64,000 nucleotides of DNA, taken from the NCBI GenBank assembly GCA_031430855.1, contig JANPCG010000010.1, positions 35,714 to 99,713 of the forward strand, written 5' to 3'. This DNA comes from Candidatus Kaiserbacteria bacterium (GTDB lineage: Bacteria; Patescibacteriota; Minisyncoccia; Phycocordibacterales; UBA918). The position numbers and the translations under genes are program-made. The notes under the pieces were generated by a model, which did not search any database, was not told the origin of the DNA, and saw nothing but the letters and a program-made list of their open reading frames with translations. This document shows, one piece after another, positions 14,553-33,192 of this stretch (position 1 is its first letter; every line of letters starts with the position of its first letter).

Positions 14553-15512
14553 ATGCAGATAACTATTTCCACAGCGTTTATTCGTGTTGTTACCATTGCT
14601 GTAATTCTCTACGTTACCTTTGGAGCCGTCGCTGCGCACGCCGGATTTGGGATTACACCACCCTATGTACGTAACACGAGCTTGACGCGAAATTCTACCT
14701 ATGAACAACAAATCCTTCTGGTACGTGGTGATCCAAATGAACCATTAAATGCAGTCATTACTGTTGATGCGCCTGAGATTCAAGACTGGATCGAGATCGT
14801 AGAGGGTACCACAATTTTGATGCCTCGGGGTGAACAAAAAGTTACCATGACCGTGCGTATTAAAGTTCCTGAAGATGCAAACTTTCAAGAGTATGCGGGA
14901 AAAATTCGTATCAAAACTGAACCAACCGACGATCAGGTAGCGCAAGGAGTAGTGAGTATTTCTTTAGGTGCCCAGGTTGATATTAACGTAAACGTAATTG
15001 ACAGAGTAATCGAGGACTTTAGGGTTCGACGTATCTCTGTACTTGATTTAAATGAAGGCCATAAAGTTGGCTGGCTATATTTCCCGGGTAAAATTCAATT
15101 TTCAATGTCGATAGAGAATACTGGTAATATAGAAATTGCTCCGTCAAAAGTCCAGTTTAGAATATTTGATAGAACGGGAGCAGTATTACTTGAGGAAACG
15201 ACCCATAAAGGAAAACTCAATAAAATTGCACCATATCTTACTGGTGATATAACTTCAGAATTGCCAACCAGGCTTCCTCCAGGTAGTTATATGGCTCGGT
15301 ACAGTATATTTAATGGAGATGAGATAAAACAAGAAGGTGAGCTTAACCTCAGTATTCTACCGTACGGTACCCTTCAGACGTCTGGATTTGGCTTTAGCGG
15401 GCTTTCTGTCCCACACAAGCTATCATTACTCCTTCCAATCTTTGCTCTCCTAATCTTCATTCTCTACACAATTTACAATCGACGACTTCGGCGCAAAATG
15501 AGAGTGAAATAA
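14553..15512 (+). CDS. Signal peptide, a ~270-aa beta-rich ectodomain, a C-terminal TM helix and a short basic tail (paralog 1 of 3).
   Basis: The signal peptide is VVTIAVILYVTFGAVAAHA and the mature N-terminus reads GFGITPPYV. The C-terminus is LLLPIFALLIFILYTIYNRRLRRKMRVK. It shares architecture and motifs with ORFs 30567 and 31540, and resembles DUF916/DUF3324 (CscA-type) proteins, though that match was not verified. Confidence 0.65.
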   Translation: MQITISTAFIRVVTIAVILYVTFGAVAAHAGFGITPPYVRNTSLTRNSTYEQQILLVRGDPNEPLNAVITVDAPEIQDWIEIVEGTTILMPRGEQKVTMTVRIKVPEDANFQEYAGKIRIKTEPTDDQVAQGVVSISLGAQVDINVNVIDRVIEDFRVRRISVLDLNEGHKVGWLYFPGKIQFSMSIENTGNIEIAPSKVQFRIFDRTGAVLLEETTHKGKLNKIAPYLTGDITSELPTRLPPGSYMARYSIFNGDEIKQEGELNLSILPYGTLQTSGFGFSGLSVPHKLSLLLPIFALLIFILYTIYNRRLRRKMRVK

Positions 15513-15515
15513 ATA

Positions 15516-16637
15516 ATGCCTATGTATGAAAAGCTTACAGCACTCATACTGGGCATACTGATACTCGAGACATTTACGAGTACCAGAGTGTATGCAGTAG
15601 AAATCTTTACCGCTACGACGACGATTAACCTCAGTATTTGCGGAAATTCACTTGTTGATATTGGTGAACAATGTGACATTCCTGGCGAACTTGGGGTTTA
15701 CAGTACTACTATTGTTGGAAGACAGTGTTCTCCTGCGTGTCGTTTTGGTGCCTATTGTGGTGACGGTATTTTGCAAACGCAATTTTCTGAAGAATGTGAC
15801 GATGCCAATAATGATAGTGGCGACTTTTGTTCTGCTACCTGTACGATTGAACCGGCCGGGTCAGGAGGAGGAGGTTCCTCGGGAGGTGGTGGGTCACGCG
15901 GTGGAGGGACGCGAGATGTTGGAGGAACTCAAATTAGTATTACCGGTTTAGGCTATCCGAACCAGACGATTAACTTCTTACTCGATACTCGTTCAATTGG
16001 TTCAGTGCGAGCCAATACAGCGGGTCGCTTTGAATTTACTGCAGAAGCTTCACCCGGCACCGCCACCCTAGGAGTCTGGGCACAGGACAGTAGTGGTCGG
16101 AGATCTATTACCTTAAACAATACGTTTGATGTAACACAGGGGGCGGTAACAAATGTATCAGGTTTAATTTTACCTCCAACAATTTCTGTTCCAAGTCCTA
16201 ATATTATTCCCGGCAGTTCACTTGTCATCTCTGGACAAGCGATTCCGTCTGCAAAAGTTGATATCCACTTTAATAATAACGAAATTGTAGAATCAACGAA
16301 TAGTGCTGTTGATGGTCGATACACACTTACATTTAACACCACGCGACTGCGTAATGCTGAGTATGCAATTAAGGCCCGCTCAGTCACCGGAACGGCACCA
16401 CTTTTAACTCAGAGTGGATTTAGTAGTTTGCTCCAACTGTTTGTTGGTGTAGATGGTAAACCAACCACCTCATCAGATCTTAACCGTGACGGTAGTGTGA
16501 ATCTGATCGACTTTTCGATTTTAATTTTCTGGTGGCAAACTCCTGGTGGTGACTCTGAACCTCCGGCTGACATAAACAGTAATGGACGGGTTAGTCTGGA
16601 GGATTTCTCAATCCTACTCTTTAACTGGACCGGCTAG
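15516..16637 (+). CDS. Secreted protein with Cys-rich repeats, a poly-Gly linker, Ig-like region(s) and a C-terminal dockerin-like module.
   Basis: It has a signal peptide and repeats of CGDGILQ..EECDDANNDSGDFCSATC type. The linker is SGGGGSSGGGGSRGGG. The C-terminus (DLNRDGSVNLIDFSILIFWW ... DINSNGRVSLEDFSILLFNW) is a duplicated Ca-binding loop of the dockerin type (DxNxDGxVNxxD). Confidence 0.7.
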   Translation: MPMYEKLTALILGILILETFTSTRVYAVEIFTATTTINLSICGNSLVDIGEQCDIPGELGVYSTTIVGRQCSPACRFGAYCGDGILQTQFSEECDDANNDSGDFCSATCTIEPAGSGGGGSSGGGGSRGGGTRDVGGTQISITGLGYPNQTINFLLDTRSIGSVRANTAGRFEFTAEASPGTATLGVWAQDSSGRRSITLNNTFDVTQGAVTNVSGLILPPTISVPSPNIIPGSSLVISGQAIPSAKVDIHFNNNEIVESTNSAVDGRYTLTFNTTRLRNAEYAIKARSVTGTAPLLTQSGFSSLLQLFVGVDGKPTTSSDLNRDGSVNLIDFSILIFWWQTPGGDSEPPADINSNGRVSLEDFSILLFNWTG

Positions 16638-16657
16638 TATCTTGTTAATGTTTCTTC

Positions 16658-16677
16658 ATTTAAACTGGACAGGCTAG
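16658..16677 (+). repeat. Ghost copy of the last 6 codons plus stop of the upstream dockerin gene.
   Basis: The gene ends tttaactggaccggctag (FNWTG*) at 16620-16637. About 21 nt after that stop, tttaaactggacaggctag reads in frame as LNWTG*. Confidence 0.45.
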
Positions 16678-17080
16678 AACTCTTGAAAATAAGTTATGAC
16701 TTTGTTGTGCTACACTCGAATATTTTTATCGTATATTAAATACGCCTCAATTATTCTCACTAGCACGCCTCGTCAAAACTCATTTTGAAGCGTTCTAGAA
16801 AAAATTTGTGTATAAGTTTAGCGAAAAAAAATTCCGACACGTTACAATGATTTTGTACTGATGTTGGAGGTATCAATTTATCGATACTGCAAGTGCCACG
16901 TAAGTGGTATTTGGGCGCTTCAGCCAAGCGTTACAGCATGAGTATGTTTACATTCTTCTATAGGTAGTCGGTGTGGAGACTGACTGCTGGTATTGGCACA
17001 TTTATGTACCAATAGCACGACAAATGACTCTTTGTACAGCATTTGGAAGTGCAGTGTAAGCTAATACAACGTAGAGCCAT

Positions 17081-18232
17081 ATGAGTAGAACGAATACCAC
17101 GTTCGGACTACTCCAAGCCGCAGCTTTGACATTAGGACTGGCGATCATTTTATGGTCACTCGGACTGCCGTCGTTCCGCTTTGCGGAAGCTGCAAATGTC
17201 ACGTCGTTAAGCGACACACTCTCTGATTCCGCTCCTTCGGTTGGAGCAAATCATACAATCTCTTTTGTTACGCCAACTGGTGTAGCAAATGGACAAACCG
17301 TCGTTGTGGACTTTTCTAACGGCCCGTTTGTAGTAGGTACTGTCGATTTTACAGATATTGATGTCATTGATGGCACCACTAATCTCTCGGTCGCAACCAA
17401 CTGCTCTGGCGCACAAGAAACCAGTGCTGCGTTTTCAGGAACAACTCTCACGGTTACATTTTGTAGCGGTGATGGAGCAGAAATCCTTCCTAATGGTACA
17501 ACTACCATCTTGATTGGAACAAATGCCACCTTTGGAGTTGCGGGAAATGCACAGCTCACAAATCCGACTGTTGGATCGTATGAAATCAATCTAACTGCTG
17601 GCGCAAGTGATTCGGGTTCTACTCGAGTTGCAATTATTGCACCAGTTATCGTTACTGCAGCCGTTGATACCAGCTTTACGTTTACCGTAGCTGGACTTCC
17701 TGGCGCAGGAACAGTAAATCAAGAGCCAATCACCGGTAGTTCGACGGCAACAACAATTCCATTTGGAACGCTGGTTGCAAACTCTGCTTCAACGGCAGCG
17801 CAGCAATTAACCGTTCAAACCAATGCTAGTTATGGCTATGCTGTAACAGTACAGGTGGATCAGCAGTTAACGTCATCGACCGGAGCAGACATTGACGGAT
17901 TTGCTAATGGAACGTATACCTCAAATCCGATTGCATGGTCACAGCCATCAGAAAGTATTAGTAACGAAGATACCTGGGGACACTGGGGTCTTACGTCAGA
18001 CGATGCAACTTTTGGTCTCAGTGATCCATTTGACGCAGCAGGAACAGGCCAATTATTCGTATCTGCTTCAACCACACCGGTAGAAGTAATGCGTCATAAT
18101 GGTCCAGCTGATGGGGTAACGCAAAACATTGGTCTCGCCAAAGTAGGCTACACCGTAGAGATTTCTCCGCTACAAGAAGCAGGGAATGACTACACCGCTA
18201 CGCTGACATACGTAGCAACCCCAGTGTTCTAA
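17081..18232 (+). CDS. Secreted Thr/Ser/Gly-rich surface protein.
   Basis: The signal peptide is FGLLQAAALTLGLAIILWSLGLPSFRFAEA. The rest is low-complexity and beta-rich with no catalytic motif. A 440-bp AT-rich non-coding region lies upstream. Confidence 0.65.
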   Translation: MSRTNTTFGLLQAAALTLGLAIILWSLGLPSFRFAEAANVTSLSDTLSDSAPSVGANHTISFVTPTGVANGQTVVVDFSNGPFVVGTVDFTDIDVIDGTTNLSVATNCSGAQETSAAFSGTTLTVTFCSGDGAEILPNGTTTILIGTNATFGVAGNAQLTNPTVGSYEINLTAGASDSGSTRVAIIAPVIVTAAVDTSFTFTVAGLPGAGTVNQEPITGSSTATTIPFGTLVANSASTAAQQLTVQTNASYGYAVTVQVDQQLTSSTGADIDGFANGTYTSNPIAWSQPSESISNEDTWGHWGLTSDDATFGLSDPFDAAGTGQLFVSASTTPVEVMRHNGPADGVTQNIGLAKVGYTVEISPLQEAGNDYTATLTYVATPVF

Positions 18233-18352
18233 AGAATATTGGTCCAAGCTTGGAGTAATACAGCAAAAAACCCTATCTCCCACCACGAGTAGGGTTTTTG
18301 CTTTGTGTACAAAGTGAGTCTTTTTGTATCGCTAATACGATATACTATCGGA

Positions 18353-19369
18353 ATGAAGAGTATTCTCTGTGGAGTTATTGGTATGTGGTTTTTTATGTCG
18401 GGAACAACCTTTGCGGCAACGTTATATATAGATCCAAATAATGCCGAACTAAACCGAGGGGACTCAATTACAGTTGCCGTGAGACTTGATACTGATGAAG
18501 CGGCGGGGGAATGTATTAATGCAGTAGATGGAGTAATTACGTACAGTGAGTCTATTGTCGCAGATGATATTTCAATTGGCGAGTCAATTTTCCCGGTCTG
18601 GGTTGAGATGCCAACAATCAATAAAGAAAATCGGACGATCACGTTTGCTGGTGGTATTCCTAATGGCTATTGTGGTCGCGTACAAGGAGATCCTAATTTA
18701 ACTAATACGGTGGTTGAATTAGTATTTCGTTCACCAGGAATGCAGGTGGGTGGTGGATCAGAACGGACGGCCGCTTTAATACAATTTACTGATCAAACCA
18801 CTGCGTATTTAAATGATGGACTTGGTACCAAAGCGCGTTTAGAAAAATATGGAACAACCGTGTCGCTTTCTCCAGATGTCGGAACTGAGATTATAGATAC
18901 GTGGCGAGAAGAGGTTCAGGCAGATACGTTCCTACCAGAAGCGTTTAGTATTTCCCTCGAGCAAGATGAAAATACCTTTGATGGTAACGCCTATATTGTT
19001 TTTAATACGACAGACAAGCAAACCGGTATCAGTCATTATGAAGTGATCGAAGAAAATAGTAGGGAATCAAAACTCTTTAGTTTTGGTGCCGCAAATACTC
19101 CTTGGGAAAAGACGAGAAGCCCCTATGTACTCAAAGACCAATCTCTCAATAGTTTGATTCGGGTACGAGCAATAGACAAAGCCGGTAATGAATACATCGC
19201 AACTTTTATGCCTGATGAATCAATGCGAAAAGCAGCACCAATAAATTTTATAGTGATAGGAATTCTCACTGTTGTGACGTTGCTCATTTTTGCCATCATG
19301 GTGAGCCTTGGTATGCGTAAGCGTAGAAAGAAGCGTGTCATTCATGAAACAGTACCAAGCACAAAATAA
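18353..19369 (+). CDS. Membrane-anchored protein with an N-terminal cohesin-like module (C-terminal TM anchor).
   Basis: The signal peptide is MKSILCGVIGMWFFMSGTTFA. The ~140-aa beta-sandwich ATLYIDPNNAELNRGDSITVAVRLDTDEAAGECINAVDGVITYSESIVADDISIGESIFPVWVE...TVVELVFRSPGMQVGG resembles cohesin. The C-terminal TM is INFIVIGILTVVTLLIFAIMVSLGMRKRRKKR. Confidence 0.7.
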   Translation: MKSILCGVIGMWFFMSGTTFAATLYIDPNNAELNRGDSITVAVRLDTDEAAGECINAVDGVITYSESIVADDISIGESIFPVWVEMPTINKENRTITFAGGIPNGYCGRVQGDPNLTNTVVELVFRSPGMQVGGGSERTAALIQFTDQTTAYLNDGLGTKARLEKYGTTVSLSPDVGTEIIDTWREEVQADTFLPEAFSISLEQDENTFDGNAYIVFNTTDKQTGISHYEVIEENSRESKLFSFGAANTPWEKTRSPYVLKDQSLNSLIRVRAIDKAGNEYIATFMPDESMRKAAPINFIVIGILTVVTLLIFAIMVSLGMRKRRKKRVIHETVPSTK

Positions 19370-19375
19370 ATATTT

Positions 19376-21136
19376 ATGATTTCATTTCAGCTACAACAAA
19401 AAATTCAATTAATTAAAGTGCTCTATCTCACACTCACGCTTGTCACTGTTGTTCTAATTTTACCAACGGTCACTCTCGCTGCGACATTATCAGTTACCCC
19501 GGCGTCGGGTGTGTATTCAACCGGCGCCACATTTACGGTAAATGTGGTTGTTAATACAGCAGGGAAACCAATTAACGCAGCTGATGGAACGTTATCATTT
19601 AACCCTCGGGAATTGTCTGTAGTTTCGGCGTCTCGCGGCGCTTCAATTTTTAATCTCTGGACAGCAGAACCGACATTTTCAAATTCTGCCGGAACGGTCA
19701 CCTTTGGTGGAGGTTTACCAAGTGGGTATACGGGCGCTGGAGGAAATGTAATGACGGTTACGTTTAAATCACTCACGTCAGGTGCTGCTCGGGTGTCACT
19801 TACGGGCGCTTCAGTCTTGGCCGCTGATGGACGCGGGACGAATGTTTTAACCTCGATGAGTGGCGGCACGTATACTCTCAGTGCGCCAACGTCCCAACCA
19901 GCACAAGAGGTGATTGTAGAGTTTGTTGCTCCTGCGAACACTCCGGCAGCTCCAGTCGTTACGTCAAAGACTCATCCAAGCCCAAATCAATGGTCTCAGG
20001 CAAAAGTAGCGGAACTTACCTGGATCCTTCCAGCAGGAGTTACCGGTGTGCGAACACTTTTAAATGAATCTCCCGTTTCAGTACCAACTAAAGTATATGA
20101 CGAACCTTTGCGCTCTATCACGCTCCCTGATTTAGATGAGGGGATTTCATATTTCCATGTGCAATTTAGAAACGCTGATGGTTGGGGTAAGGTAGCTCAC
20201 TTTAGGTTAGCAGTTGATAGTGCAAAGCCTTCATCTTTTGAACTAAAGCTTGAAGAAGGAGCTGATGTAACAAAATCAAAGCAAGCTCTGATTGCACTGG
20301 TTGCAGACAAAACATCAAACGTTCTACGATTTAAGGTTCAGATTAATGGGGCCGAGCCATACGAATACATTCGGCCATATGCGACCGCTACCATTCCACT
20401 TCATGACCTGAAACCAGGCAACCAGACGATTGTCGTTGAAGCCTTTGACGAAGCAGGGAATTCAATTGTGAGTACGTACTCATTTGTTATTAGTTCGTTT
20501 GAAAAACCTATTTTTACAGAGTTTCCTAGTGAATTATCCGCCGGAGTGACACCTGTAATTCGAGGTACTACTCGTCCTGAATCAACCCTTTCGATTACCA
20601 TTACGCCAACTAATGGTGAGGCTCGTACAGAAAGTACTCGTAGTGATAGTAGTGGGGCCTTTACCTTTGTCTCTTCAGCTCCATTTTCAACCGGAGTCTA
20701 TCAAGTGGCCGCTACAGCGATTGATAATGAAGGTTCACAAAGTAAACCTTCAGATACTCTCACCATCACCGTAAGAGAGCCGGGGTATGTCATCGTAGGC
20801 ACATTTTTGATTAATGTTCTTTCTGTTATTATTCCGTTAATTGCCCTTTGTGTTCTTACGTGGATTGTACTGGTATATTCACTTAATCGACTCAGAACGC
20901 TGCGACGAAAGGTTCTTATTGAGTCGGATGAAGCTGTTCTTGTGTTGCGAAAACAATTTATCCATGTCTATGAAGTATTAGACGAAGAAGAACGCAAACT
21001 TGTCGGTTCGCGCAAGACACAAAAATTAACAGAGGCGGAAGCACATTTGATTGAATCGATGCGAATAGCTCTTCATGAGGCTGAGAGCAAGGTGGCGAAA
21101 GAAGTTGAAGATGTCACAAAAATAATTACAAAATAA
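19376..21136 (+). CDS. Membrane-anchored protein: cohesin-like module, Ig/Fn3-like domains, a C-terminal TM helix and a cytoplasmic coiled-coil tail.
   Basis: The cohesin-like block is LSVTPASGVYSTGATFTVNVVVNTAGKPINAADGTLSFNPRELSVVSASRGASIFNLWTAEPTFSNSAGTVTFGGGLPSGYTGAGGNVMTVTFKSLTSGAARVSLTGASVL. The TM is FLINVLSVIIPLIALCVLTWIVLVY, followed by a charged helical tail. Confidence 0.7.
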   Translation: MISFQLQQKIQLIKVLYLTLTLVTVVLILPTVTLAATLSVTPASGVYSTGATFTVNVVVNTAGKPINAADGTLSFNPRELSVVSASRGASIFNLWTAEPTFSNSAGTVTFGGGLPSGYTGAGGNVMTVTFKSLTSGAARVSLTGASVLAADGRGTNVLTSMSGGTYTLSAPTSQPAQEVIVEFVAPANTPAAPVVTSKTHPSPNQWSQAKVAELTWILPAGVTGVRTLLNESPVSVPTKVYDEPLRSITLPDLDEGISYFHVQFRNADGWGKVAHFRLAVDSAKPSSFELKLEEGADVTKSKQALIALVADKTSNVLRFKVQINGAEPYEYIRPYATATIPLHDLKPGNQTIVVEAFDEAGNSIVSTYSFVISSFEKPIFTEFPSELSAGVTPVIRGTTRPESTLSITITPTNGEARTESTRSDSSGAFTFVSSAPFSTGVYQVAATAIDNEGSQSKPSDTLTITVREPGYVIVGTFLINVLSVIIPLIALCVLTWIVLVYSLNRLRTLRRKVLIESDEAVLVLRKQFIHVYEVLDEEERKLVGSRKTQKLTEAEAHLIESMRIALHEAESKVAKEVEDVTKIITK

Positions 21137-21145
21137 CTATACTGT

Positions 21146-21811
21146 ATGAAATTATCATTCCCCAATTACCTCATTGTTAGTATAATTTTGATAGCCGTTA
21201 TCGGATACATACTAGTGGATAGATACATTGATACAAAAACCCAAACAGCCCGAGTGTCTATCGAAGAAACTATTGCTGAACAACAAAAACGGTTGGTTAA
21301 CACAGCAGATATGACGAAGCAAATCAAATCCGATGAACGTATTAAAACCTACTTGTCAGATTGTGAGCCAGCAAAACGAGATCGTTTTGATGTGCTTCTT
21401 GATAAACTTTCCGTTACAATAACCGGAGCAGAGCTTGATGAACTCAGCGTGCTCTTCTATCAGTGTGGCAGTTATTTTTCTGATGTGAAATCAACTATGG
21501 CCGGAAAACTTTCCCGCGAAGTTGAAATTCTTGTCGATTACGTGTCTCTTCAGGGAAAAATTACAGCAACCGATGAATCACAGTCGCGGCGCGTCGAAAT
21601 GTGGAGAAAAGTTGCAGATGCTGAACAAAAAAATGCCGCCTTTTTTGCTGACTTGGTGACGTACCAAGAACAAATTATCGAAGCCTTACGGAATGGTAAA
21701 TTGGCGTCCTCGCCTGAGGTGGTCGAGATTGCAAAAAAAGCCCAAACAACTCGTGAACAAATGTTAGTATTGAATCAACAAATTGATTCCTATCGCAAGG
21801 AAGCAATCTAA
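21146..21811 (+). CDS. Hypothetical protein, N-terminal TM anchor plus a helical domain.
   Basis: The N-terminal TM is LIVSIILIAVIGYILV. The rest is charged and helical. It is tightly packed between the cohesin genes. Confidence 0.55.
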   Translation: MKLSFPNYLIVSIILIAVIGYILVDRYIDTKTQTARVSIEETIAEQQKRLVNTADMTKQIKSDERIKTYLSDCEPAKRDRFDVLLDKLSVTITGAELDELSVLFYQCGSYFSDVKSTMAGKLSREVEILVDYVSLQGKITATDESQSRRVEMWRKVADAEQKNAAFFADLVTYQEQIIEALRNGKLASSPEVVEIAKKAQTTREQMLVLNQQIDSYRKEAI

Positions 21812-21814
21812 ACT

Positions 21815-22567
21815 ATGAACCCACTTAGGCATATACTCCGATACGTTTTTCCGACCGCCACATTACGTAACTCGGTTACTGTCCGTTATGCCTTTTCTTT
21901 TCTTTTTCTCTTTGCTGCCCTGGTTGGAATGGCTACGGTGGTTGGAAAAGATGGAACCTACATAAAAATCATTACCCCTAATACGACCGTTGAGTCAGGG
22001 ACAGTCTTCCCAGTTGATGTATACGTGTATGCGGCAACGCCAGTAAATGCCGTTGATATTTCTGTTTCATTTACCGCTAGTCAAATTGAAATATTGGGAA
22101 TTGATAAAGGTGAGTCAGTAATTACATTATGGACCGAAGAGCCATCGGTTAAAGGAGGTAGTGTCATTCTGCGCGGAGGAACGTACAAACGTGGTTTTGT
22201 GGGCGAACATAAAATTGCCACGATAAACGCGAAGGCTCTTACAACTGGTAACGCAGAGTTTATAATTAATAATGTTAAAATCTTAGCCGGAGACGGAAAG
22301 GGGACAGAAATTGCTACCGACCTCACCCGGGGAAAAATTATAACTACTATTACTAAACCAGGAGAAAGCAGTGGTATTACGCTCCAAGGTGATGGTGCAA
22401 TTGTTGTTATTACTGATATTGATGGTGATGGTACTGTTTCGCTTCGTGACATTAGTTCATTTATGGCTAGTTGGGCAAATAAAGATACCGTGTATGACTT
22501 TAACGGAGATGGAAATATGACCTTTAAAGATTTTTCAATAATTTTGGCTGATTTTTTCCTTAAATAA
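21815..22567 (+). CDS. Protein with an N-terminal TM helix, a cohesin-like module and a C-terminal dockerin-like module.
   Basis: The cohesin-like region is TYIKIITPNTTVESGTVFPVDVYVYAATPVNAVDISVSFTASQIEILGIDKGESVITLWTEEP...ATINAKALTTGNAEFIINNVKILAGDGKG. The dockerin-like C-terminus is DIDGDGTVSLRDISSFMASW...DFNGDGNMTFKDFSIILADFF. Confidence 0.65.
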   Translation: MNPLRHILRYVFPTATLRNSVTVRYAFSFLFLFAALVGMATVVGKDGTYIKIITPNTTVESGTVFPVDVYVYAATPVNAVDISVSFTASQIEILGIDKGESVITLWTEEPSVKGGSVILRGGTYKRGFVGEHKIATINAKALTTGNAEFIINNVKILAGDGKGTEIATDLTRGKIITTITKPGESSGITLQGDGAIVVITDIDGDGTVSLRDISSFMASWANKDTVYDFNGDGNMTFKDFSIILADFFLK

Positions 22568-22682
22568 GGTTCTGGTGTGTTGATAAAAGGTTTTTTTGAT
22601 TGCAAAATAACTGGTATTCTATACTAGATGGGGAAAGTATAGCTCACCGTGAATGGGCTATTAATTTAGGCTGTAAAAGCCA

Positions 22683-24332
22683 ATGAATGTAAGAAATCAA
22701 ACCACAAAAGAAAAAACTATCTACCGCGGGTACATCTACCGTCAGGTATTTCAGACCAACTTCTCGCAACTGGTAGTTTTGTTGTTGCTTGTTTCAATTT
22801 TTTTACAACCAATAGAACGTACTCACGCCAGCGAAGTAGTCGACCCGTCCGGAGAAGTGGTTCCCGTAGTAACCATATTAGAAGAAGAGTCTCTTGCAGA
22901 ATCGACAAATATATTAACTGAGGAAGCGGCTTTAGTTTCACCAGAAGTAACCGGAGAATCAGAAGAAGAGGTAATAGAAGTTGCTACTGAAAATTCATCT
23001 GCCGTAATGACTGTTGAAGAGGGAACTACAACCGAAAAAACTCAGGCTGTGGTGATAGATACACCCGAAACACCAACTGAAGAAGTGGCTCTCCCTCCGA
23101 CTGCAATCGAAGAAACGATTGCAGAGTACACCGCTCCTCTTGGTGAGTTACCGCCCGACGTGCCTGCAGTAGATGCGGCCGGTAATGTTACTGATAGTGA
23201 AGCATCTATAAACCTTGTAGAAGAGTCTGTATTAGAGCCGACTGCAACAACAACTATCTTGGCCGAATCTGCCATTGCGGTTTCTACGGTATCAAGCGAT
23301 GGAATGATTCAATTTGATAAAAGTGATTGTATTACGGTCGCTGATGGATCTTTTTACTGTCAGCCGCAGAAGTCATCAACTGAGCTTGCTGAAGATGGAC
23401 TATTTGCTTTACCAGACCGCGATGGTGATTTAGAAATTTATATACAAAAGGCTGGTGAATTAAGTCAAATTTCCTTTAATGAAGTTGATGACGCTGCTCC
23501 GTACTTTGATTCGCTTTCAAATACTCTTGTGTGGCATCGGCTGGTTAATGACCGGTATCAAATTGTAGCGTTTGATATTGCTACTGGTGAAGAATCGTTA
23601 CTCACTTCAGATACTGTCAATAATATGGAACCTACGCGAGCTGGTAAATATACCGTCTGGCAACGTTGGAGTGGAGATAATTGGGATATTGTATTGTATG
23701 ATGGCAAAAATTCTACCATTCTCACAACCGCACTTGAACATGATATTGCACCAAAAGTGCGTGGCAATCTTGTAGTCTGGAACCGATTAAGTTTTGATAG
23801 ATCACAGACCATTGAACTGTATGATATTGAAACGGGAGAATATACTACTATTAATGATAAAGAAGGTGGAAAAATCTCAAACCCCCGTATGGTGTTAGTA
23901 TATGAATCCACTTTTGACAATGGAGATATTGTTACTAAAGGCTACGATATAGAAACCAGAGAAATTACACCACTTAATGCTACTCCAATTGAAATTCCTG
24001 AAGAAATTCCTACTCCAGATTCAACCGGAGAAACGAGAGCATTTATCCAAGGTAAAACAACTACAAAAGAAGAAGCAGAAAGTATTGATTTTGCATCATC
24101 GACACCAACTATAAATGGTCCAGATCCAGAAGCCGTTCAAGCTACGAGTACCATTACGGTAGAACTCTCATCTAGCACCGCTCCTGTGTACGCAAGCACT
24201 ACCGGGGCAGCGGTCGAGCTGACACTTGATTTGCGACCCGCAGACATAGAAAGTACAACAGAAATCATTGATATTGTTGTACCACCATTTACTGCTGTTG
24301 GTACTGCTACTCTAGGAGAAGTAAATCAATAA
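22683..24332 (+). CDS. Acidic, membrane-anchored protein with TolB/PD40-like beta-propeller repeats.
   Basis: The N-terminal TM is LVVLLLLVSIFL. A Glu/Thr-rich acidic linker follows. Repeated ~40-aa units (LVWHRLVNDRYQIVAFDIATGEE; YTVWQRWSGDNWDIVLYDGKN; LVVWNRLSFDRSQTIELYDIETGE) are typical of PD40/WD-like propeller blades. Confidence 0.6.
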   Translation: MNVRNQTTKEKTIYRGYIYRQVFQTNFSQLVVLLLLVSIFLQPIERTHASEVVDPSGEVVPVVTILEEESLAESTNILTEEAALVSPEVTGESEEEVIEVATENSSAVMTVEEGTTTEKTQAVVIDTPETPTEEVALPPTAIEETIAEYTAPLGELPPDVPAVDAAGNVTDSEASINLVEESVLEPTATTTILAESAIAVSTVSSDGMIQFDKSDCITVADGSFYCQPQKSSTELAEDGLFALPDRDGDLEIYIQKAGELSQISFNEVDDAAPYFDSLSNTLVWHRLVNDRYQIVAFDIATGEESLLTSDTVNNMEPTRAGKYTVWQRWSGDNWDIVLYDGKNSTILTTALEHDIAPKVRGNLVVWNRLSFDRSQTIELYDIETGEYTTINDKEGGKISNPRMVLVYESTFDNGDIVTKGYDIETREITPLNATPIEIPEEIPTPDSTGETRAFIQGKTTTKEEAESIDFASSTPTINGPDPEAVQATSTITVELSSSTAPVYASTTGAAVELTLDLRPADIESTTEIIDIVVPPFTAVGTATLGEVNQ

Positions 24333-27300: not shown

Positions 27301-30300
27301 CAGCAAGTGGGGGTATTGAAAATACACAAGTTACTAATCACTCGCAAAATACTCAAATACGCCTTCGTCTTGGAGTCAGTAACGAAGGGGTGGCAACATC
27401 TACTAATGCCTTCTATCGACTAGAGTTTGGACCTAAAATTACTACGTGTAGTTCTGTAGCGATATGGACGAGTGTTGGAGCCGCTGCTGATGACTGGAAT
27501 ATGTTTAATTCACCTAATATTACTGAAGGAAACAACACCACAAATATTGCTACCTCAAGCGGCGGAGTAACAGACGGAAACACTTCTTTTTTGGTCGTAA
27601 ATGGTGGTCTTCGTGACACGTCTGCGACCACATCAGCTATAACGTTAAGTAGTACTCAATTTACAGAACTTGAGTATAGTATTACTTCCTCAGCTTTGAC
27701 AGCGTTTAATACAACTTATTGTTTCCGCGTTTCTAACGCTGGGAATCCGCTCCCGCAATATGATACGTATGCAGAAATTACAACTGCACCGGCTCGCGAC
27801 TTTAAAGTACAACGCGGCGATGTAGTAATTACAAGTACCAGCTCTACGTTAGTTGCTGGTGTAGATTACGTCGCCCCAACAGCTTCCTCTACTGCATTTA
27901 TACGTATCACAAACGCGCATCATACGGGAGCTGGTCGAATCACTCTTGGTGCAGCACAAAATGCACGAGACGTGACAGCCTATATCGTAAACCCAACCAA
28001 CATTCAAACGAGTGTTACGATTGCTCGTCCCGCCTTTACCCTTAATAACACTCGAGTCTCATGGGAAATTGTTGAATTTATTGCCGCCACCGGTACTGAT
28101 AATGAAATGATTGTCCGGTCTGCCGGTTCATTACAAATGCCGACCGCATCAACGTCTGCTACAGGTACGGCGATATCATCAGTTGTTGATGATAGTAAAG
28201 TGGTTGTTTTTATCACGGGGCTCTATAACCGCGATGCCGGACGAAATGTGTATTATGCCGGACAAATAACAACCTCATGGGACGCGACAAATAACCGGCC
28301 AATTTTTACGCGTGGTGCCGGAGGAGCGATTATTGATGTCAGTTATGCAGTTGTTGAATATACAGGCATCAATTGGCAAATTCAAAGAATTGAACATACG
28401 TATAGTGCTACCAATACGATTGAAACTAAAGCGATCGCTCCCGTTAATAGTTTGGCGCGTACTTTTATCCATTCTCAAAAGCGTGTTGGCGCACTTGGTA
28501 ACGTTGACAATTTTGGACATGAAGTATGGCTGTCGAGTATTGGGGCAGTGTCGTTTCGTCTTGAAGCAGGAGCGTCAACTCCAACGAGTCATGTTTCAGT
28601 GGCATGGGTAATAGAAAACCAACAAACGAGTGCCGGGGCTATGAAAGTGCAGCGCAGTAATGGAAACACTACTGATGGAACTGAGCCGGTAGTTTTAGCA
28701 GTAGATATATTTACCCCTATTGCGGCACTTAATAATTCTTCTATATTTTTGAACACGAGGGTAGTAGGAGCAAACTCAAACTTTCCTCTGCCGATGGCCG
28801 GCGCCAGTATTGTTTCTACCTCTTCGTACAATATATGGCGAAGCGAGGCAACTGGTGGGTTATTAACCTATCGAACTGAAATTGTTGAGTGGCCAACTAA
28901 TGGACTGGCGGTCCGACAAAATTATTACCGTTTCTATTCTGATAATAACGCTCTTATTCCAACTGATGCTTGGCCACCAGGACCAACAAATTTGGGTGAA
29001 AATACATCCATAACAGCGCTAGATGAACCGCTAGGAGATGGTGATCGGGTGCGATTACGCATGACTGCTCGGGTGGCAAACGCGAACCTTCCCGCCGGAC
29101 TCTATGACTTTAAATTGCAATACGGTCAGAGAATATCGTCATGTTCTGCGATTGCAAGTTGGTCTGATGTTGGATCAACCACGAGCGGCACAATTTGGCG
29201 TGGCTATAATGCTCCCGGGGTAACAAATGGAGTCGTGCTATCAACTGACCCTCCTACTGGCGGTGACTTATTACTGTCGGTTAGCGATGTGGCTGGAAAC
29301 TACGTAGAGCTAAATCCATCTCCGACAAATCCTTATATTGTTGAACCAGGAGAAGATGTAGAGTTTGATTGGCACCTCGAAGATAATGGTGCACTGGAAC
29401 GAACTAGCTACTGTTTTCGCATGATAAAGAGTGATGGTGCTACTTTAGATGGGTACTTTAATTACCCTCAAATCAGAACTGCGAGTTTTACACCGGCGGG
29501 AAAAAAATGGCGTTGGTATGATGACACCGAGAACGAAACGCCAAGCACTCCTTTATCTGCTGAAGAAGTCGCTCCAATTGAAATCGGAGCCAATAACCCG
29601 ATAGCACTACGTATTACAGTTGATGAAATCAAAAATGTACAAGGTCTTAATATAAAATTCAAATTACAATTTGATGAGAGTAGTTTGTTTACTAATCCAC
29701 GTGATGTTGTTGCTACGAGTTCATGTGTTGCTACTTCGACCTGGTGTTACAGTACAGGCGGGGGTGTAAATAACACTAAAGTTACCTCCCGCGTTCTTTC
29801 CGATTCTGATCCATGCATCGCAAGTGTTGGTATTGGATGTGGTACACACAATAATTCGCCCACCTATACAACAGGCGATACACATCCGTCTGGTGCTCTC
29901 CGTGAATATTCATTTTATCTTGAACAACGTTCTGCCCGTGTTGGTGCAGTGTACTATTTTAGACTCTACGAAACGTTAAACAGTCTCCCCGTTGCGCCCG
30001 CTTCAACCAGCACCTATCCGAGTCTGGTTGCAGAAAGTGCAACGCTGTTTCTTACGGTATCGGGGTTGCCTGCCGGAACAACGACAGCGGGCGTAGTCAC
30101 GGCTGCCTCATCAACACCTAACACAATTGCTTTTGGCTCACTCCCACTCAATACTGACGTAAATGCAGCTCATCGCGTGACACTTGATACGAATGCTACA
30201 CAAGGGTACCGCGTACTCACGTATGCACGACAACAACTCATAAACTCATATAACACTGCAATTCCATCAATTATTGGTTCAAATGCGACACCTACCAGTT

Positions 30301-30557
30301 GGGCCATTGGTTGTCTCTCGAGCACTACTGGATGTGTAGGGTATCACAGTACTGACGCTACACTTAGCGGTGGTTCTACTCGATTTGCACCACTCGATAG
30401 CTATGCACCACTTGATAGTACTCCAAGAGAAATTATGTTTGGCTCTTTTCCAACGACCGATGTCCATGATATTGTATATAGAGTCAGGGTTCGATCGAGT
30501 CAACCAGCCGGTGACTACGAAACTGAAATCATCTATCTTGCTATTCCAGTCTACTAA
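24390..30557 (+). CDS. Giant surface protein (~2055 aa): N-terminal TM, BNR/sialidase-like propeller region, tandemly duplicated ~350-aa modules, then further jelly-roll-like modules.
   Basis: The preferred start is ATG 24390 (aaagga N3 ATG), within an ORF opening at GTG 24360. The TM is GVTLTLLLTILVSQISFVSFLL. BNR-like Asp-box motifs are present (TTNGGTSWG; WNGSSWSGSW). Two tandem modules each end in YCFRV[TS]NAG.PLPQY. The later modules begin Y.F[RY].D[ND]... Confidence 0.75.
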   Translation: MRNFPAFFGRKNNYSRGVTLTLLLTILVSQISFVSFLLPTVVEAAVVTIDGDANQNSTSHLFSGGQTVFISDQVGYKFFRDNPSAGPCVYRKTTNGGTSWGAAVTVDAQTDCAGIVVWYDQWTPGDFGNSIHIATMDTAAAIDNLFYNRLDTNTDTLLMGTAPANATASSSQGGTYAVGTNAHTITKGTDGTLYLASQDASDSFVVRCSASCNAAGSWTEAGTAPIGLTNDWNILMPLSGGNILLLNRANTLDDIQSKIWNGSSWSGSWTTIDSNAIENTTYDVGMAATIDHSTGDIYLAYAADNDTFTVADHDLRTAKYTSGSWTSGTAVFTNRAGIGLLQTAISVDSNTSTIYLGYTMRTTPGTAASANVYYATGTAALSSWGAEQGPVNTTSANLYGVDFNIMSDERIYASWFDATLFDILGNTVADISPVVKVSTRGIPTASVTASTSNVYLGGTFVIKEGQTTRNVTDIVISESGTIDAENAIKNVSLYYDLDTTAPYDCASESYVGSESKYGSTDTNGFSSANGVSSFVDVVSISATQALCVYVAADVTDAALDGSTVRLSVSNPPSDVLVSGGAIATPLIPVGFVAGTNVFNDQLSQGHYQFRNDNGNEAGATSATGGTQDTPLGAIQPNSPKRLRIAVSNEGSISTPVTQFRLEYAVAAPTCDVASSWTDVGATNDAWNMFDSTFVTDGSNTTDIATSTGGTTNENTTFLTPNGGVRDTTSQTGSLTLTNANFVELEYSIVASTTAIEGATYCFRVTNAGAPLPQYLVYPSATISADATLSAAGSQVTSAVIPELNLYVGGKFGIRENLSSRTVTNITITETGSVDGQLNLDNIRIAYDLDTSAPYDCASESYVGGEAQFGAIDTNGFSSANGSSTFAGSVSITTTQSICAYVVLDVVSSALNDDTVKIGIASGGNDITVSSGSVSPSTPVSLTGTTTLSGSVVAQTAYHFRNDNGSETGATSASGGIENTQVTNHSQNTQIRLRLGVSNEGVATSTNAFYRLEFGPKITTCSSVAIWTSVGAAADDWNMFNSPNITEGNNTTNIATSSGGVTDGNTSFLVVNGGLRDTSATTSAITLSSTQFTELEYSITSSALTAFNTTYCFRVSNAGNPLPQYDTYAEITTAPARDFKVQRGDVVITSTSSTLVAGVDYVAPTASSTAFIRITNAHHTGAGRITLGAAQNARDVTAYIVNPTNIQTSVTIARPAFTLNNTRVSWEIVEFIAATGTDNEMIVRSAGSLQMPTASTSATGTAISSVVDDSKVVVFITGLYNRDAGRNVYYAGQITTSWDATNNRPIFTRGAGGAIIDVSYAVVEYTGINWQIQRIEHTYSATNTIETKAIAPVNSLARTFIHSQKRVGALGNVDNFGHEVWLSSIGAVSFRLEAGASTPTSHVSVAWVIENQQTSAGAMKVQRSNGNTTDGTEPVVLAVDIFTPIAALNNSSIFLNTRVVGANSNFPLPMAGASIVSTSSYNIWRSEATGGLLTYRTEIVEWPTNGLAVRQNYYRFYSDNNALIPTDAWPPGPTNLGENTSITALDEPLGDGDRVRLRMTARVANANLPAGLYDFKLQYGQRISSCSAIASWSDVGSTTSGTIWRGYNAPGVTNGVVLSTDPPTGGDLLLSVSDVAGNYVELNPSPTNPYIVEPGEDVEFDWHLEDNGALERTSYCFRMIKSDGATLDGYFNYPQIRTASFTPAGKKWRWYDDTENETPSTPLSAEEVAPIEIGANNPIALRITVDEIKNVQGLNIKFKLQFDESSLFTNPRDVVATSSCVATSTWCYSTGGGVNNTKVTSRVLSDSDPCIASVGIGCGTHNNSPTYTTGDTHPSGALREYSFYLEQRSARVGAVYYFRLYETLNSLPVAPASTSTYPSLVAESATLFLTVSGLPAGTTTAGVVTAASSTPNTIAFGSLPLNTDVNAAHRVTLDTNATQGYRVLTYARQQLINSYNTAIPSIIGSNATPTSWAIGCLSSTTGCVGYHSTDATLSGGSTRFAPLDSYAPLDSTPREIMFGSFPTTDVHDIVYRVRVRSSQPAGDYETEIIYLAIPVY
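25700..27795 (+). repeat. Tandem duplication of a ~1.05 kb (~350 aa) module within the giant gene.
   Basis: Copy 1 (YLGGTFVIKEGQTTRNVTDIVISESGTIDAENAIKNVSLYYDLDTTAPYDCASESYVGSESKYGSTDTNGFSSANG...) and copy 2 (YVGGKFGIRENLSSRTVTNITITETGSVDGQLNLDNIRIAYDLDTSAPYDCASESYVGGEAQFGAIDTNGFSSANG...) align over their full length. Confidence 0.6.
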
Positions 30558-30566
30558 CTTTCGTTT

Positions 30567-31562
30567 ATGAAAAATTATTTTCCTCTCCTTATCGCGACTA
30601 TAGTAATACTGTCTCCGTTTAGTCATCTGCAGGCTGCTGATTACGGTATTTCTCCACTTATTATTGATCGAAATATTGAAGCGCGCGAAAGTTTTGAAGA
30701 AACCGTTAAAATTACCAATTCAAGTGATCGAAAGTTACGTCTCTTTCCTACGGTGAATGAAATTACAGTTGGTTCAGATGGGGAAATTCTTGATTTTGTA
30801 CCGGCTTCAATGAGTAATAACGCTACTAGTGTCACCAGTTGGATCGCAGTAACTCGTGGACGGGTAGAAATAAATCCCGGAGAAACCATTAAAGTGCCGG
30901 TTACCGTATCAGTTAGTCCGACTGCCGTGCCTGGTGAATACCACGCTTTTATCGGATTTGCTGAGGGGTCAAAACGAGACGAAGCAGAGTTAAAAGTTCA
31001 AAATGGAAGTGCTCCAGGAGTTGTCGTGCGTTTGTCCTTGAGTGAAAAGAGAAGTGAATACCTCCGTCTCCAAAAATTTTCGGTGGCCCGGTTTGTCACA
31101 AAACCCGAAGATACAGAGCTTACGTATGTGATAGAAAACGTTGGTGAAAAACCCTTGACGCCAAAAGGTGAAATTATATTTTATGATGTCCGTGGGTCTG
31201 AAAAAGCTACTCTCCCGGTAAATCCTGAACAGTTTGAAATACGAGCTCAGTCTTCTAAAGAATTCGTTGCGACAATTCCCGCAATTGGAGCCATTGGAAA
31301 ACATAAAGCCTTTATTAACATTGAATACGGATCAACACAAAGGGCTAATTTGTATGATACTACTTATTTTAATATTGTCCCTTTAAAGATTTTGATTAGT
31401 TTGTTCATTTCTTTTTTGGTAGTTTCAATACTGCTCGCACTTTACTATCACCGTCGTACCACGAAACATTCAGTTCGAGATGAGGAAGAAGGAGTAAGTG
31501 TCTACGTACGCAGTGGAGTGTCATCAAGTGATAAAGATCATGATATCAATCTCAAACAATAG
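30567..31562 (+). CDS. Signal peptide, beta-rich ectodomain and C-terminal TM (paralog 2 of 3).
   Basis: The signal peptide is LLIATIVILSPFSHLQA, with ADYGISPLIID after cleavage. The C-terminal TM is ILISLFISFLVVSILLALYYHRR. It is 9 nt downstream of the giant gene and has the same architecture as 14553. Confidence 0.65.
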   Translation: MKNYFPLLIATIVILSPFSHLQAADYGISPLIIDRNIEARESFEETVKITNSSDRKLRLFPTVNEITVGSDGEILDFVPASMSNNATSVTSWIAVTRGRVEINPGETIKVPVTVSVSPTAVPGEYHAFIGFAEGSKRDEAELKVQNGSAPGVVVRLSLSEKRSEYLRLQKFSVARFVTKPEDTELTYVIENVGEKPLTPKGEIIFYDVRGSEKATLPVNPEQFEIRAQSSKEFVATIPAIGAIGKHKAFINIEYGSTQRANLYDTTYFNIVPLKILISLFISFLVVSILLALYYHRRTTKHSVRDEEEGVSVYVRSGVSSSDKDHDINLKQ

Positions 31563-33192
31563 TCGCCTGTTCATTTTGTTAGCGCTTGCTTTTATTATCA
31601 GTTTAACACTGACTAATTTTGCATTGGCTGAGACTCCAACTACACAAACATTAAGTGTTTCTCCGACGTTGTTTCAGATGAGTGTTAATCCCAGTCAAGC
31701 TTGGGTGAGTGAACTACGTGTCACAAATGTTAATGATTTCGATATTACCATTTACCCGCAAGTGGTTAATTTCGCTCCTTTGGGTGAGAGCGGGAGGGGA
31801 GATTTGATTCCTGTTTTTACCTCAGAAACCAAAGGATCTACGCTTGCTGAATGGATAAAGCTTGATCCTGTTGGTGTTCTGGTTCCGAAACAAGAAACCA
31901 AGACGCTCTCTTTTTCTGTCAACGTTCCTCCAACCGCAGCGCCCGGAGGTCATTATGCAGCAATATTGATTGGCACAAAACCGCCAACCGCTGTTACCGG
32001 TAAATCACAAGTCCAAACAGCTCAGTTTGTAACCTCATTGTTTTTTGTCCGGGTAGCGGGTGATGTTACCGAAAAGGGAATGATCCGAGAATTCAGAACC
32101 ACCGAAAAACTACTCGATACCCCTCACGTTACGTTTGAATTACGATTTGAAAATGAAGGAAATGTTCACCTTCAACCACAGGGTGACATCGTTATCAGTA
32201 ATATGTGGGGTGAGGAGCGGGGAATTATCCCAATTAATCAACAAACTCATTTCGGTAATGTCCTCCCACAAAGTGTCCGTAAATTCGAGTTTACTTGGTC
32301 TGGTGTCGCTTCAGTATTTGATATTGGGCGGTATAAGGCGATTGCTACATTGGGCTACGGTGAAGAATCAAAGAATTTTGTAACCAGTACTACCTATTTT
32401 TGGATTGTACCGATTCAGCAAATACTTATCACCCTGATTGTGATGGGGTTCCTCATATGGTTGTTTACCTTTGCGGTGAGAATGTACGTGCGTCGGATGC
32501 TTACTCTCGCTGGTATCGAACCGCGTACTATGTATACAGAGAAAACGGGAGCTATTACTGCCGTTAGGGCAGACAAGACCGTGATTATTAAGCGTTATCG
32601 CACTGTAGCCGCTCCGGTAATAATTGGACTTAGAGAACTTAAAAAACAGTTATTTTCTGAAACCAATATGCGTGCCCGCATGAAGGTGATTCTTCAGTCA
32701 TTCTACCGGTATAGACTCTTAGTAGGTACTGTTCTGGGATTTTTTGTTGTTGTGTTCTTTGTAATTCTTTTTATTCAAAGTGTTACCAAACCAGATGCAC
32801 CTTATAGTGTTACGATTACGAATCCGGATTCAAGCGTTACTCTTTCTTCCGAACAAATAATTTATAATGATCTTGAAAAAACAAAAACTGACACGAAGGG
32901 GGCTACTACTTCCGAACAAAACTTTGCAATCAAAGTCATAAATGTAAGTGGCATAACTGGTCAAGCAGCAAGGGCTCGGCTTAGTCTTGAGTCCGCAGGC
33001 TATGCAGTGAGTGAAATTGGGACTGACCCAACCCGTATCGAAGAAAAGTCAGCTATTGTATACAACGGCGTACCTCCAAAAACAGTACTTGAGATTAGTA
33101 AACTCCTTAATAACGCACTCCCTTCAGCGAGTGCTGAAATTGATATTGATACGGTCGTTATATACGTCGGGACAGACATCGCAGAAGACTAG
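31540..33192 (+). CDS. Paralog 3: signal peptide, beta-rich ectodomain, two TM helices and a C-terminal LytR_C-like (LCP C-terminal) domain.
   Basis: The signal peptide is RLFILLALAFIISLTLTNFALA. The ectodomain (TQTLSVSPTLFQMSVNP...) resembles 14553 and 30567. The TM helices are ILITLIVMGFLIWLFTFAV and LLVGTVLGFFVVVFFVILFI. The C-terminal block AIKVINVSGITGQAARARLSLESAGYAV...IVYNG fits the LytR_C pattern. The start overlaps the previous gene by 23 nt. Confidence 0.6.
   Translation: MISISNNSRLFILLALAFIISLTLTNFALAETPTTQTLSVSPTLFQMSVNPSQAWVSELRVTNVNDFDITIYPQVVNFAPLGESGRGDLIPVFTSETKGSTLAEWIKLDPVGVLVPKQETKTLSFSVNVPPTAAPGGHYAAILIGTKPPTAVTGKSQVQTAQFVTSLFFVRVAGDVTEKGMIREFRTTEKLLDTPHVTFELRFENEGNVHLQPQGDIVISNMWGEERGIIPINQQTHFGNVLPQSVRKFEFTWSGVASVFDIGRYKAIATLGYGEESKNFVTSTTYFWIVPIQQILITLIVMGFLIWLFTFAVRMYVRRMLTLAGIEPRTMYTEKTGAITAVRADKTVIIKRYRTVAAPVIIGLRELKKQLFSETNMRARMKVILQSFYRYRLLVGTVLGFFVVVFFVILFIQSVTKPDAPYSVTITNPDSSVTLSSEQIIYNDLEKTKTDTKGATTSEQNFAIKVINVSGITGQAARARLSLESAGYAVSEIGTDPTRIEEKSAIVYNGVPPKTVLEISKLLNNALPSASAEIDIDTVVIYVGTDIAED

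Follow-up and report, generated by a model that had tools for sequence, protein, structure and literature searches.

Completion of a pilus subunit by a strand from a two-domain chaperone has been solved for the chaperone-usher pili. In the Candidate Phyla Radiation (CPR), the PamA and PamB filaments of Candidatus Mycosynbacter amalyticus were solved by cryo-electron microscopy (bioRxiv 10.64898/2026.03.03.709456, a June 2026 preprint). These Pam pilins consist of an N-terminal beta-sandwich, a linker strand which is donated to the next subunit, and a truncated immunoglobulin (Ig)-like C-terminal acceptor domain. Two further Pam proteins, PamC (WP_260763277.1) and PamD (WP_260763284.1), combine a signal peptide, two FimC/PapD-like domains and a C-terminal transmembrane (TM) helix; they have been proposed to be membrane-anchored chaperones working without an usher, and are predicted to insert strands into the pilin C-terminal domain, each being paired with particular pilins (bioRxiv 10.64898/2026.03.03.709456). 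The system was reported mainly in Saccharimonadia and Microgenomatia, and the preprint makes no mention of WxL or WxLIP. For the latter proteins, a strand of WxLIP has been predicted to occupy a gap left in the WxL sandwich, and a WxL gene cluster has been defined as a minimum of one WxLIP plus two WxL-domain proteins within four genes (PMC10599100). Here we analyse a 64,000-nucleotide stretch of DNA from a Candidatus Kaiserbacteria bacterium (assembly GCA_031430855.1, contig JANPCG010000010.1, positions 35,714 to 99,713 of the forward strand; hereafter the window), and in particular three proteins, A, B and C, which are encoded in a surface-protein gene cluster of about 33 kb (coordinates in Table 1).

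Computational comparison revealed that A, B and C share an architecture of signal peptide, beta-rich ectodomain and C-terminal TM helix, that they are homologous to WxLIP and have a chaperone-like fold, that partner proteins carry a remote Pam-type C-terminal domain (CTD), and that the gene arrangement is conserved. By analogy with the systems above, we put at roughly 55% the probability that A, B and C are usher-less, membrane-tethered, strand-complementing chaperones which feed donor-strand exchange in a divergent Pam-like system.

A first-pass annotation of the same DNA had described three open reading frames (ORFs) of this architecture, all of which are present, and had suggested that they are paralogous. 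BLASTP aligned B with C over 285 aa (27% identity, 1e-20) and A with C at 4e-4, and found no significant match between A and B. Family profiles were more sensitive. The A and B families align over 222–235 colinear columns across both ectodomain domains (HHalign 96.5–96.7%, E 3e-10 to 8e-10), A aligns with two C-type families at 96.5–96.9%, and B aligns with C at 99.9%. Six other beta-rich proteins of the window and three other family alignments, used as controls against the paralogue profiles, reached at most 1.1%, showing that the resemblance is not the chance likeness of beta-rich proteins. On these alignments B and C are clear paralogues and A is a remote one, such that the suggested kinship held in sensitive profile alignment for all three. 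A is the most divergent of the three, yet the most conserved: it has 1502 homologues, the best 120 of which are at least 66% identical to it.

The same annotation had likened the layout to that of the DUF916/DUF3324 (CscA-type) proteins, and the first of these two families was indeed recovered. PF06030 (WxLIP_PGBD, formerly DUF916) matches B at 17.8 bits and C at 21.0 bits, both below the gathering score of 27.3, and does not match A. It also matches 17 of the 63 close relatives of B, where it is the third commonest family after DUF4832 and fn3_5, and 25 of 104 divergent relatives (best E 1.6e-6), where it is the commonest. Other weak matches are to generic Ig-like families, namely fn3_5, CARDB, NPCBM_assoc and DUF4832. 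The DUF3324 part of the proposed layout found no counterpart in the Pfam searches, with PF11797 matching neither A, B nor C at E up to 1, nor any of the 63 and 104 relatives at E up to 0.01. For a direct comparison, a DUF916 reference was assembled from five proteins annotated by PGAP on plasmids of Cohnella, Clavibacter, Cellulosimicrobium and Paenibacillus, of which three pass the PF06030 threshold and two adjoin proteins passing the PF13731 (WxL) threshold. HHalign aligned this reference with B at 99.1% (E 4.8e-19), with C at 99.2%, with a third paralogue type, known from relatives, at 99.6%, with A at 96.7%, and with the pooled superfamily at 99.7% (E 6.9e-26). The alignments span 177–222 columns, the longest being that of the pooled superfamily, and they reach the second domain despite the lack of a PF11797 match; negative controls stayed at or below 1.1%. 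An NCBIfam scan of the 104 relatives matched no Pam chaperone model.

Fold comparison agreed with the profiles. An AlphaFold2 model of B, built with 63 homologues (predicted local distance difference test, pLDDT, 89.7), shows a pair of beta-sandwich domains and, after them, a long TM helix. Its top Foldseek matches in the PDB are 9i25_C (E 1.4e-11), entitled 'WxLIP from Enterococcus faecium locus A bound to long WxL', and 9i1y (E 3.0e-11), also an E. faecium WxLIP, over about 264 columns which include both domains. We found no publication on the 9i25 structure. The next matches are the chaperones CfaA, CsuC and EcpB of alternate and archaic chaperone-usher systems (E 1e-9 to 1e-7), and further down are ASH/PapD-like domains and, at rank 14, RbmA. 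Taken together, profile and fold comparisons place A, B and C as distant members of the WxLIP (DUF916) superfamily; by Pfam thresholds they are not members.

The superfamily is large and, on homology, it extends with its gene arrangement outside the CPR. The B family profile collects 5371 or more cluster representatives with E no higher than 1e-3. On the plasmid NZ_CP026517.1 of Deinococcus sp. NW-56, the locus 6944-12517 includes a gene for a homologue of the C ectodomain (E 2e-11) that has no TM anchor. This would fit a chaperone kept soluble in cells that have a periplasm and tethered in those that have none. The Deinococcus protein sits between secreted proteins of 292 and 190 aa, which end ..AGDNIATLTYTLTS.. 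and ..GGGYLFDMTFTALALP, and a 1013-aa protein containing SdrD_B is next in order.

The topologies of the three proteins were read from hydropathy and sequence. In A, the signal peptide ends AHA/G and the ectodomain of about 250 aa is followed by a TM helix at aa 284-310 and the tail NRRLRRKMRVK. In B, the signal peptide (aa 1-23) ends LQA/A, the beta-sandwich domains occupy aa 26-158 and 166-270, and the TM helix is placed at aa 267-295 from hydropathy and sequence, or at aa 273-302. The short basic tail that had been ascribed to the proteins is found in A; B instead has a cytoplasmic tail of 35 aa (window 31470-31562) ending in a family-invariant motif, ..YVR.G..S..KDHDINLK, the last part of which (..KDHDINLK) does not vary across 63 relatives. 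The longest ORF for C starts at a GTG at 31498. The ATG at 31540 gives a 23-nt overlap with B and is the best start for C, as this agrees with the overlap of about 25 nt between the B and C genes of orthologues. Numbered from this ATG, C has three hydrophobic segments, namely a signal peptide, TM1 (aa 287-317) and TM2 (aa 390-418), and then a LytR_C domain (PF13399) which scores 34.5 bits against a Pfam gathering score of 22.2, so that the second TM helix and the LytR_C-like block noticed earlier are both present. The domain also shows a weak match to Cei. By the positive-inside rule it is predicted to be extracytoplasmic, and the positively flanked loop of about 70 aa between TM1 and TM2 (window 32490-32710) to be cytoplasmic. 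LytR_C is found in 33 of 73 complete C orthologues (~45%) and is absent from the other 40, which still keep the TM-loop-TM module including the conserved loop of about 70 aa. The invariant tail of B and the conserved loop of C suggest, from conservation, a cytoplasmic partner or signal.

Two candidate partners share a CTD of about 185 aa, with aa 1898-2065 of the 2065-aa secreted protein encoded directly upstream of B (the giant) aligning with aa 201-383 of a 383-aa pilin-like protein (33% identity, 5e-11). Few proteins of the cluster are as conserved as the pilin-like protein, which has more than 2329 homologues, the best 120 of them at least 65% identical. It also gives the only informative NCBIfam match in the region, at 22.7 bits to NF058581 (CPR_Pam_pilin_C, Pam pilus system pilin subunit). 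The last 146 aa of the giant align with positions 3-148 of the 148 positions of the same model at 23.5 bits, and related CTDs examined individually give full-length alignments scoring up to 34.5 bits. The CTD of the giant was aligned with 32 related CTDs. Of 33 related CTD proteins, 19 matched NF058581 (best 9.7e-9) and five matched PamT, with no other family recurring. These matches indicate that the CTDs in the window are remote relatives of the Pam pilin domain, not members by the NCBI rule.

In the AlphaFold2 model of the pilin-like protein (pLDDT 85.3), residues 41-185 form the N-terminal domain and residues 199-383 the CTD. Among 20 orthologues of 40–45% identity, conservation over 12 residues is highest in two windows, the C-terminal strand (DYTATLTYVATP) and the linker between the domains (RVAIIAPVIVTA); a conserved linker and C-terminal strand are likewise reported for PamA and PamB (bioRxiv 10.64898/2026.03.03.709456). 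The linker motif was found neither in the giant nor in its counterparts of about 445 aa in other genomes. Separately, we observed that a similar C-terminal strand, G-x-(D)-Y-x3-[LIF]-T-[YLF]-x-[ALT].., ends both the CPR CTDs and small secreted proteins adjacent to DUF916/WxLIP genes; this likeness was not significant in profile comparisons.

Linkage to genes for large surface proteins, which the first-pass annotation expected to be conserved, was followed through 76 non-redundant species-level loci with 28–63% identity to B. Relatives of proteins of the window come from metagenome-assembled genomes that bear the titles Kaiserbacteria, Paceibacteria, Parcubacteria, Nomurabacteria and 'Patescibacteria group', which marks the window as CPR DNA of the Paceibacteria type. 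In every one of the 76 loci, B is followed by a C-type paralogue, and a CTD protein lies directly upstream of B in 62 of the 73 loci with enough sequence and further upstream in eight more. The linkage is thus kept, if not to giant genes in every case: the upstream CTD protein is 380–2484 aa long (median 2049), from which it follows that the CTD, rather than gigantism, is the invariant. In the window itself, A and B each lie directly 3' of a gene for a large surface protein as had been described, and C lies behind B. The neighbours had been described as rich in Ser, Thr and Cys; their composition is S 12.5%, T 14.4% and C 2.2% for the 624-aa protein upstream of A, and S 10.6%, T 12.5% and C 1.0% for the giant. 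The ~33-kb cluster is syntenic in three further genomes, in the order DUF2341 giant, ABC/MacB pair, 624-aa protein, A, pilin, cohesin/dockerin proteins, giant, B and C. More distant genomes have the order CTD protein, B, C, small pilin and third paralogue. In most closer relatives a 549-aa protein precedes the giant; loci with a small upstream partner do not have it. After C, most closer relatives encode a single-TM protein of 160 aa, with a small pilin-like gene in its place in more distant loci. A scan of genome contigs with C alone as query returned nothing. Loci with the same gene order and 37–48% identity to B were also seen under titles such as 'Candidatus Saccharibacteria', Acidimicrobiales, Gammaproteobacteria, Patiriisocius and Azotimanducaceae, which are probably generic labels or binning errors rather than a taxonomic spread.

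From these observations we infer a scheme which covers the donation of strands, polymerisation, the assignment of partners, the placing of the giant at the tip and wall tethering. A, B and C would be exported by Sec and would display their two Ig-like domains on the outside of the cytoplasmic membrane, held there by the C-terminal TM helix. In this scheme they are usher-less counterparts of the chaperone-usher chaperones, and correspond to PamC and PamD in the Pam pilus of the CPR. Strand completion in the related systems leads us to propose that they capture subunit CTDs at the membrane, such that each paralogue would bind the Pam-pilin-type CTD of its cognate secreted protein as this leaves Sec and would donate a beta-strand that completes the unfinished sandwich. 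The subunit would then be handed to donor-strand exchange. The pilin-like protein could polymerise through its conserved linker strand, and the giant, lacking the linker motif, could sit distally as an adhesin. As a division of labour, B and C may serve the giant, and A either the 383-aa pilin or the 624-aa protein. The second TM helix and extracytoplasmic LytR_C domain of C may tie the site of assembly or anchoring to the cell wall.

Several observations weigh against this chaperone scheme. All of the CTD scores (22.7–34.5 bits) fall under the curated NF058581 cut-off of 55. A Foldseek search with the model of the pilin-like protein returned, among its top 50 PDB matches, generic two-Ig adhesins and no Pam, WxL or chaperone-usher pilins. 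WxL and the CTD align at only 0.3% in HHalign, with HMM scores that are not significant, in a comparison that used few WxL sequences, all from plasmids. The TM-scores of the B model to WxLIP are low (0.32–0.42, with a root-mean-square deviation of about 18 Å), which reflects a difference in domain orientation. HMMER searches of PDB sequences with profiles for B, the pilin-like protein and A1/A2/A3 gave no WxLIP, WxL or Pam match; sequence-only HMMER is too weak for the WxLIP link. Upstream of A, the 624-aa protein has no recognisable Pam-like CTD. The same acceptor domain is therefore not claimed for this neighbour, the C-terminal regions of 12587-14461 and 104-7840 reaching 0.1% in HHalign against the CTD. 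Instead, about 250-290 aa at the C-terminus of the 624-aa protein are homologous to the end of the DUF2341 giant 104-7840 (27% identity, 7e-14), and the two define a second shared C-terminal module, ..YWGI.VP....G.Y/N.F..

The final point against a transient role comes from the Firmicutes, where the title of 9i25 ('bound to long WxL') makes WxLIP and WxL appear to form a stable complex, which favours anchoring. A, B and C might accordingly be static anchors, each in a permanent strand-complemented complex with its partner CTD that pins a non-covalently attached surface protein (the giant, the pilin-like protein or another) to the membrane with no polymerisation. WxLIP has indeed been proposed to bind and stabilise WxL at the surface (PMC10599100). 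The invariant tail of B, together with the conserved loop and wall-associated domain of C, would suit a fixed platform, and RbmA, whose fold has been assigned to the anchor PamR, is among the fold matches of B. The TM helix kept in all three paralogues points the same way, although the Pam chaperones are likewise TM-anchored. Against permanent complexes, the strong conservation of the pilin linker strand fits an exchange of strands between subunits, the CTDs match the Pam pilin model, and the paralogues outnumber the CTD proteins per locus. We regard static anchoring as unlikely on balance, if still a serious contender, and count with it a mixed version in which one paralogue, most plausibly C, is a PamR-like fibre terminator or anchor and the others are chaperones. 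It is improbable that the three are instead independent Ig-like membrane adhesins or wall binders whose beta-sandwiches bind host or wall ligands and whose adjacency to CTD genes reflects co-regulation. Such a role would be in line with the weak matches to fn3_5, CARDB, NPCBM_assoc and DUF4832, and with the N-acetylglucosamine and host binding predicted for WxLIP (PMC10599100) and embodied in the PGBD/HBD naming. However, the gene order beside CTD genes is strictly kept across 28–63% identity to B, the number of paralogues tracks that of CTD genes, the fold is like that of dedicated pilus chaperones, and a TM-less form occurs in a diderm (Deinococcus). A role for C as a ligase or regulator of cell-wall glycopolymers, of the LCP type, is hardly credible: its LytR_C domain is above threshold, but this domain is missing from more than half of the complete C orthologues of otherwise the same architecture, occurs not just at the C-termini of LCP-family enzymes, where the first-pass annotation rightly placed it, but also in non-enzymatic proteins such as Cei, and is accompanied in C by no LCP catalytic or other enzymatic domain (Pfam and NCBIfam, E up to 1).

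The genes for secreted and membrane proteins form a long run in the window, all on one strand (+). Orthologues of the DUF2341 giant, which is cut by the window start, are 3209–6919 aa long. Type VII ABC systems pass force to extracytoplasmic partners, and on this analogy the ABC ATPase and permease pair may power surface assembly. The cohesin/dockerin set includes one protein with dockerin, Big_6 and a DUF4215 repeat rich in Cys, two with cohesin and C-terminal TM helices, and a fourth with cohesin and dockerin/EF-hand; the set resembles the non-covalent surface scaffold of a cellulosome, here in a CPR genome. Beyond 34 kb the window appears to be housekeeping, judged by synteny with TGT, UvrB, UvrA and other genes in relatives.

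Table 1. Coordinates of the features discussed, in window positions unless another locus is named
Feature	Position	Strand	Description
Paralogue A, 319 aa	14553..15512	+	Signal peptide, two beta-sandwich domains, C-terminal TM helix, basic tail
Paralogue B, 331 aa	30567..31562	+	Signal peptide, two beta-sandwich domains, TM helix, cytoplasmic tail
Paralogue C, 550 aa from ATG	31540..33192	+	WxLIP-like ectodomain, TM1, cytoplasmic loop, TM2, LytR_C
LytR_C domain of C	32926..33177	+	aa 477-560 of the 564-aa ORF; PF13399
Giant secreted protein, 2065 aa	24360..30557	+	Directly upstream of B; Pam-pilin-like domain at C-terminus
CTD (C-terminal acceptor-type domain) of giant	30117..30554	+	NF058581 alignment; end ..AGDYETEIIYLAIPVY
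Pilin-like protein, 383 aa	17081..18232	+	Signal peptide, N-terminal beta-sandwich, linker strand, CTD
N-terminal beta-sandwich of pilin-like protein			aa 41-185
Linker of pilin-like protein	17624-17659		aa 182-193
CTD of pilin-like protein	17675-18229		aa 199-383
624-aa Ser/Thr/Cys-rich surface protein	12587..14461	+	Directly upstream of A
549-aa conserved secreted protein	22683..24332	+	Weak TolB-like propeller repeats
160-aa conserved single-TM protein	33240..33722	+	
DUF2341-containing giant, C-terminal part	104-7840		Cut by the window start
LolCDE/MacB/FtsEX-type ABC ATPase and its permease	9840-11162 and 11319-12527		ATPase with C-terminal extension of ~200 aa
Cohesin/dockerin proteins	15516-16637, 18305-19369, 19376-21136, 21815-22567		
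Two tRNA-Ala genes	52795-52868 and 53833-53906		Anticodons TGC and GGC, ~1 kb apart
Strand-bearing CTD ends	18170-18232 and 30500-30557		
Strand-bearing small proteins of other loci	L088 5095-5721, L089 4896-5540, L090 9637-10245, L091 5585-6154		Clavibacter/Cellulosimicrobium/Paenibacillus (WxL)

The prevailing view of CPR bacteria is that they live attached to other cells, and most of their surface machinery is unannotated; every database relative that A, B or the pilin-like protein has is labelled 'hypothetical'. The chaperone scheme proposes a testable function for a surface cluster of about 33 kb which is conserved across many Paceibacteria-type genomes, and offers a possible route by which giant adhesins, as candidate host-attachment factors, could be mounted. 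It would extend the Pam-type system beyond the lineages and score thresholds now used to recognise Pam, and would join the idea of Pam chaperones to what has been written on WxLIP and WxL in Gram-positive pathogens and probiotics. More tentatively, with the odds somewhat against us, we suggest that the WxL/WxLIP proteins of Bacillota, DUF916 of Actinomycetota, the TM-less Deinococcus form, Pam of Saccharimonadia and the Paceibacteria cluster are one ancient usher-less system, in which a partner with two Ig-like domains would complete the C-terminal domain of secreted subunits and WxL would be a pilin-type acceptor; in Paceibacteria, adhesins of 2000 aa would be mounted on or beside a fibre built from a surface protein that is among the cell's most conserved, and the LytR_C paralogue would couple the platform to the wall. 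If the link of Pam chaperones to WxLIP holds, the 'peptidoglycan-binding' domains of WxL would be reread as strand-acceptor domains. The kinds of component are already known, WxLIP since 2006 and 2023 and Pam since the 2026 preprint. What appears not to have been described before is the Paceibacteria version, visible only below curated thresholds, the occurrence of Pam-type acceptor domains in proteins some 2000 aa long, the set of three paralogues with a TM hairpin and LytR_C in one of them, and an explicit homology of the CPR 'chaperones' with WxLIP.

Of the known systems, the LCP C-termini and mycobacterial Cei resemble C in its last ~85 aa, which form a LytR_C domain after a TM helix as in Cei; C differs in that this domain is joined to a WxLIP-like ectodomain via a TM hairpin, without an LCP catalytic domain. 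The chaperones of chaperone-usher systems (PapD/FimC; CfaA, CsuC and EcpB) share the two Ig-like domains and the proposed donor-strand principle. They are soluble, whereas the window proteins are TM-anchored in a cell without evidence of an outer membrane. Classical membership of this group was rejected for A, B and C, there being no PapD_N or PapD_C Pfam match, and none of the scanned proteins of the cluster resembling an usher. WxLIP (DUF916, DUF3324 and TM; CscA) of Bacillota such as E. faecium, L. plantarum and Listeria is alike in its signal peptide, two Ig-like domains and C-terminal TM helix, and in having as gene neighbours a small and a large secreted protein with a common C-terminal domain. 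The window proteins are unlike it in being sub-threshold for PF06030 and lacking PF11797, and in their partners, whose CTDs have no PF13731 match, so that the WxL-domain neighbours by which WxL gene clusters are defined were not found among these partners. They also differ in their CPR host, in having as many as three paralogues in a cluster, of which one carries a second TM helix and LytR_C, and in partners of up to 2484 aa. Compared with Pam, the CTDs of the window score far below the cut-off, a CTD is found on a 2065-aa giant, one paralogue is fused to LytR_C, there is no ATP-synthase neighbourhood, and the relatives are titled Kaiserbacteria, Paceibacteria, Parcubacteria or Nomurabacteria as opposed to the Saccharimonadia and Microgenomatia in which Pam was mainly reported. 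PamC and PamD are nonetheless alike by description, with a CPR host, a signal peptide, two beta domains, a C-terminal TM helix and several paralogues beside pilins, and the pilin-like protein is, according to its model, built like the Pam pilins from an N-terminal domain, a linker strand plus an acceptor domain at the C-terminus.

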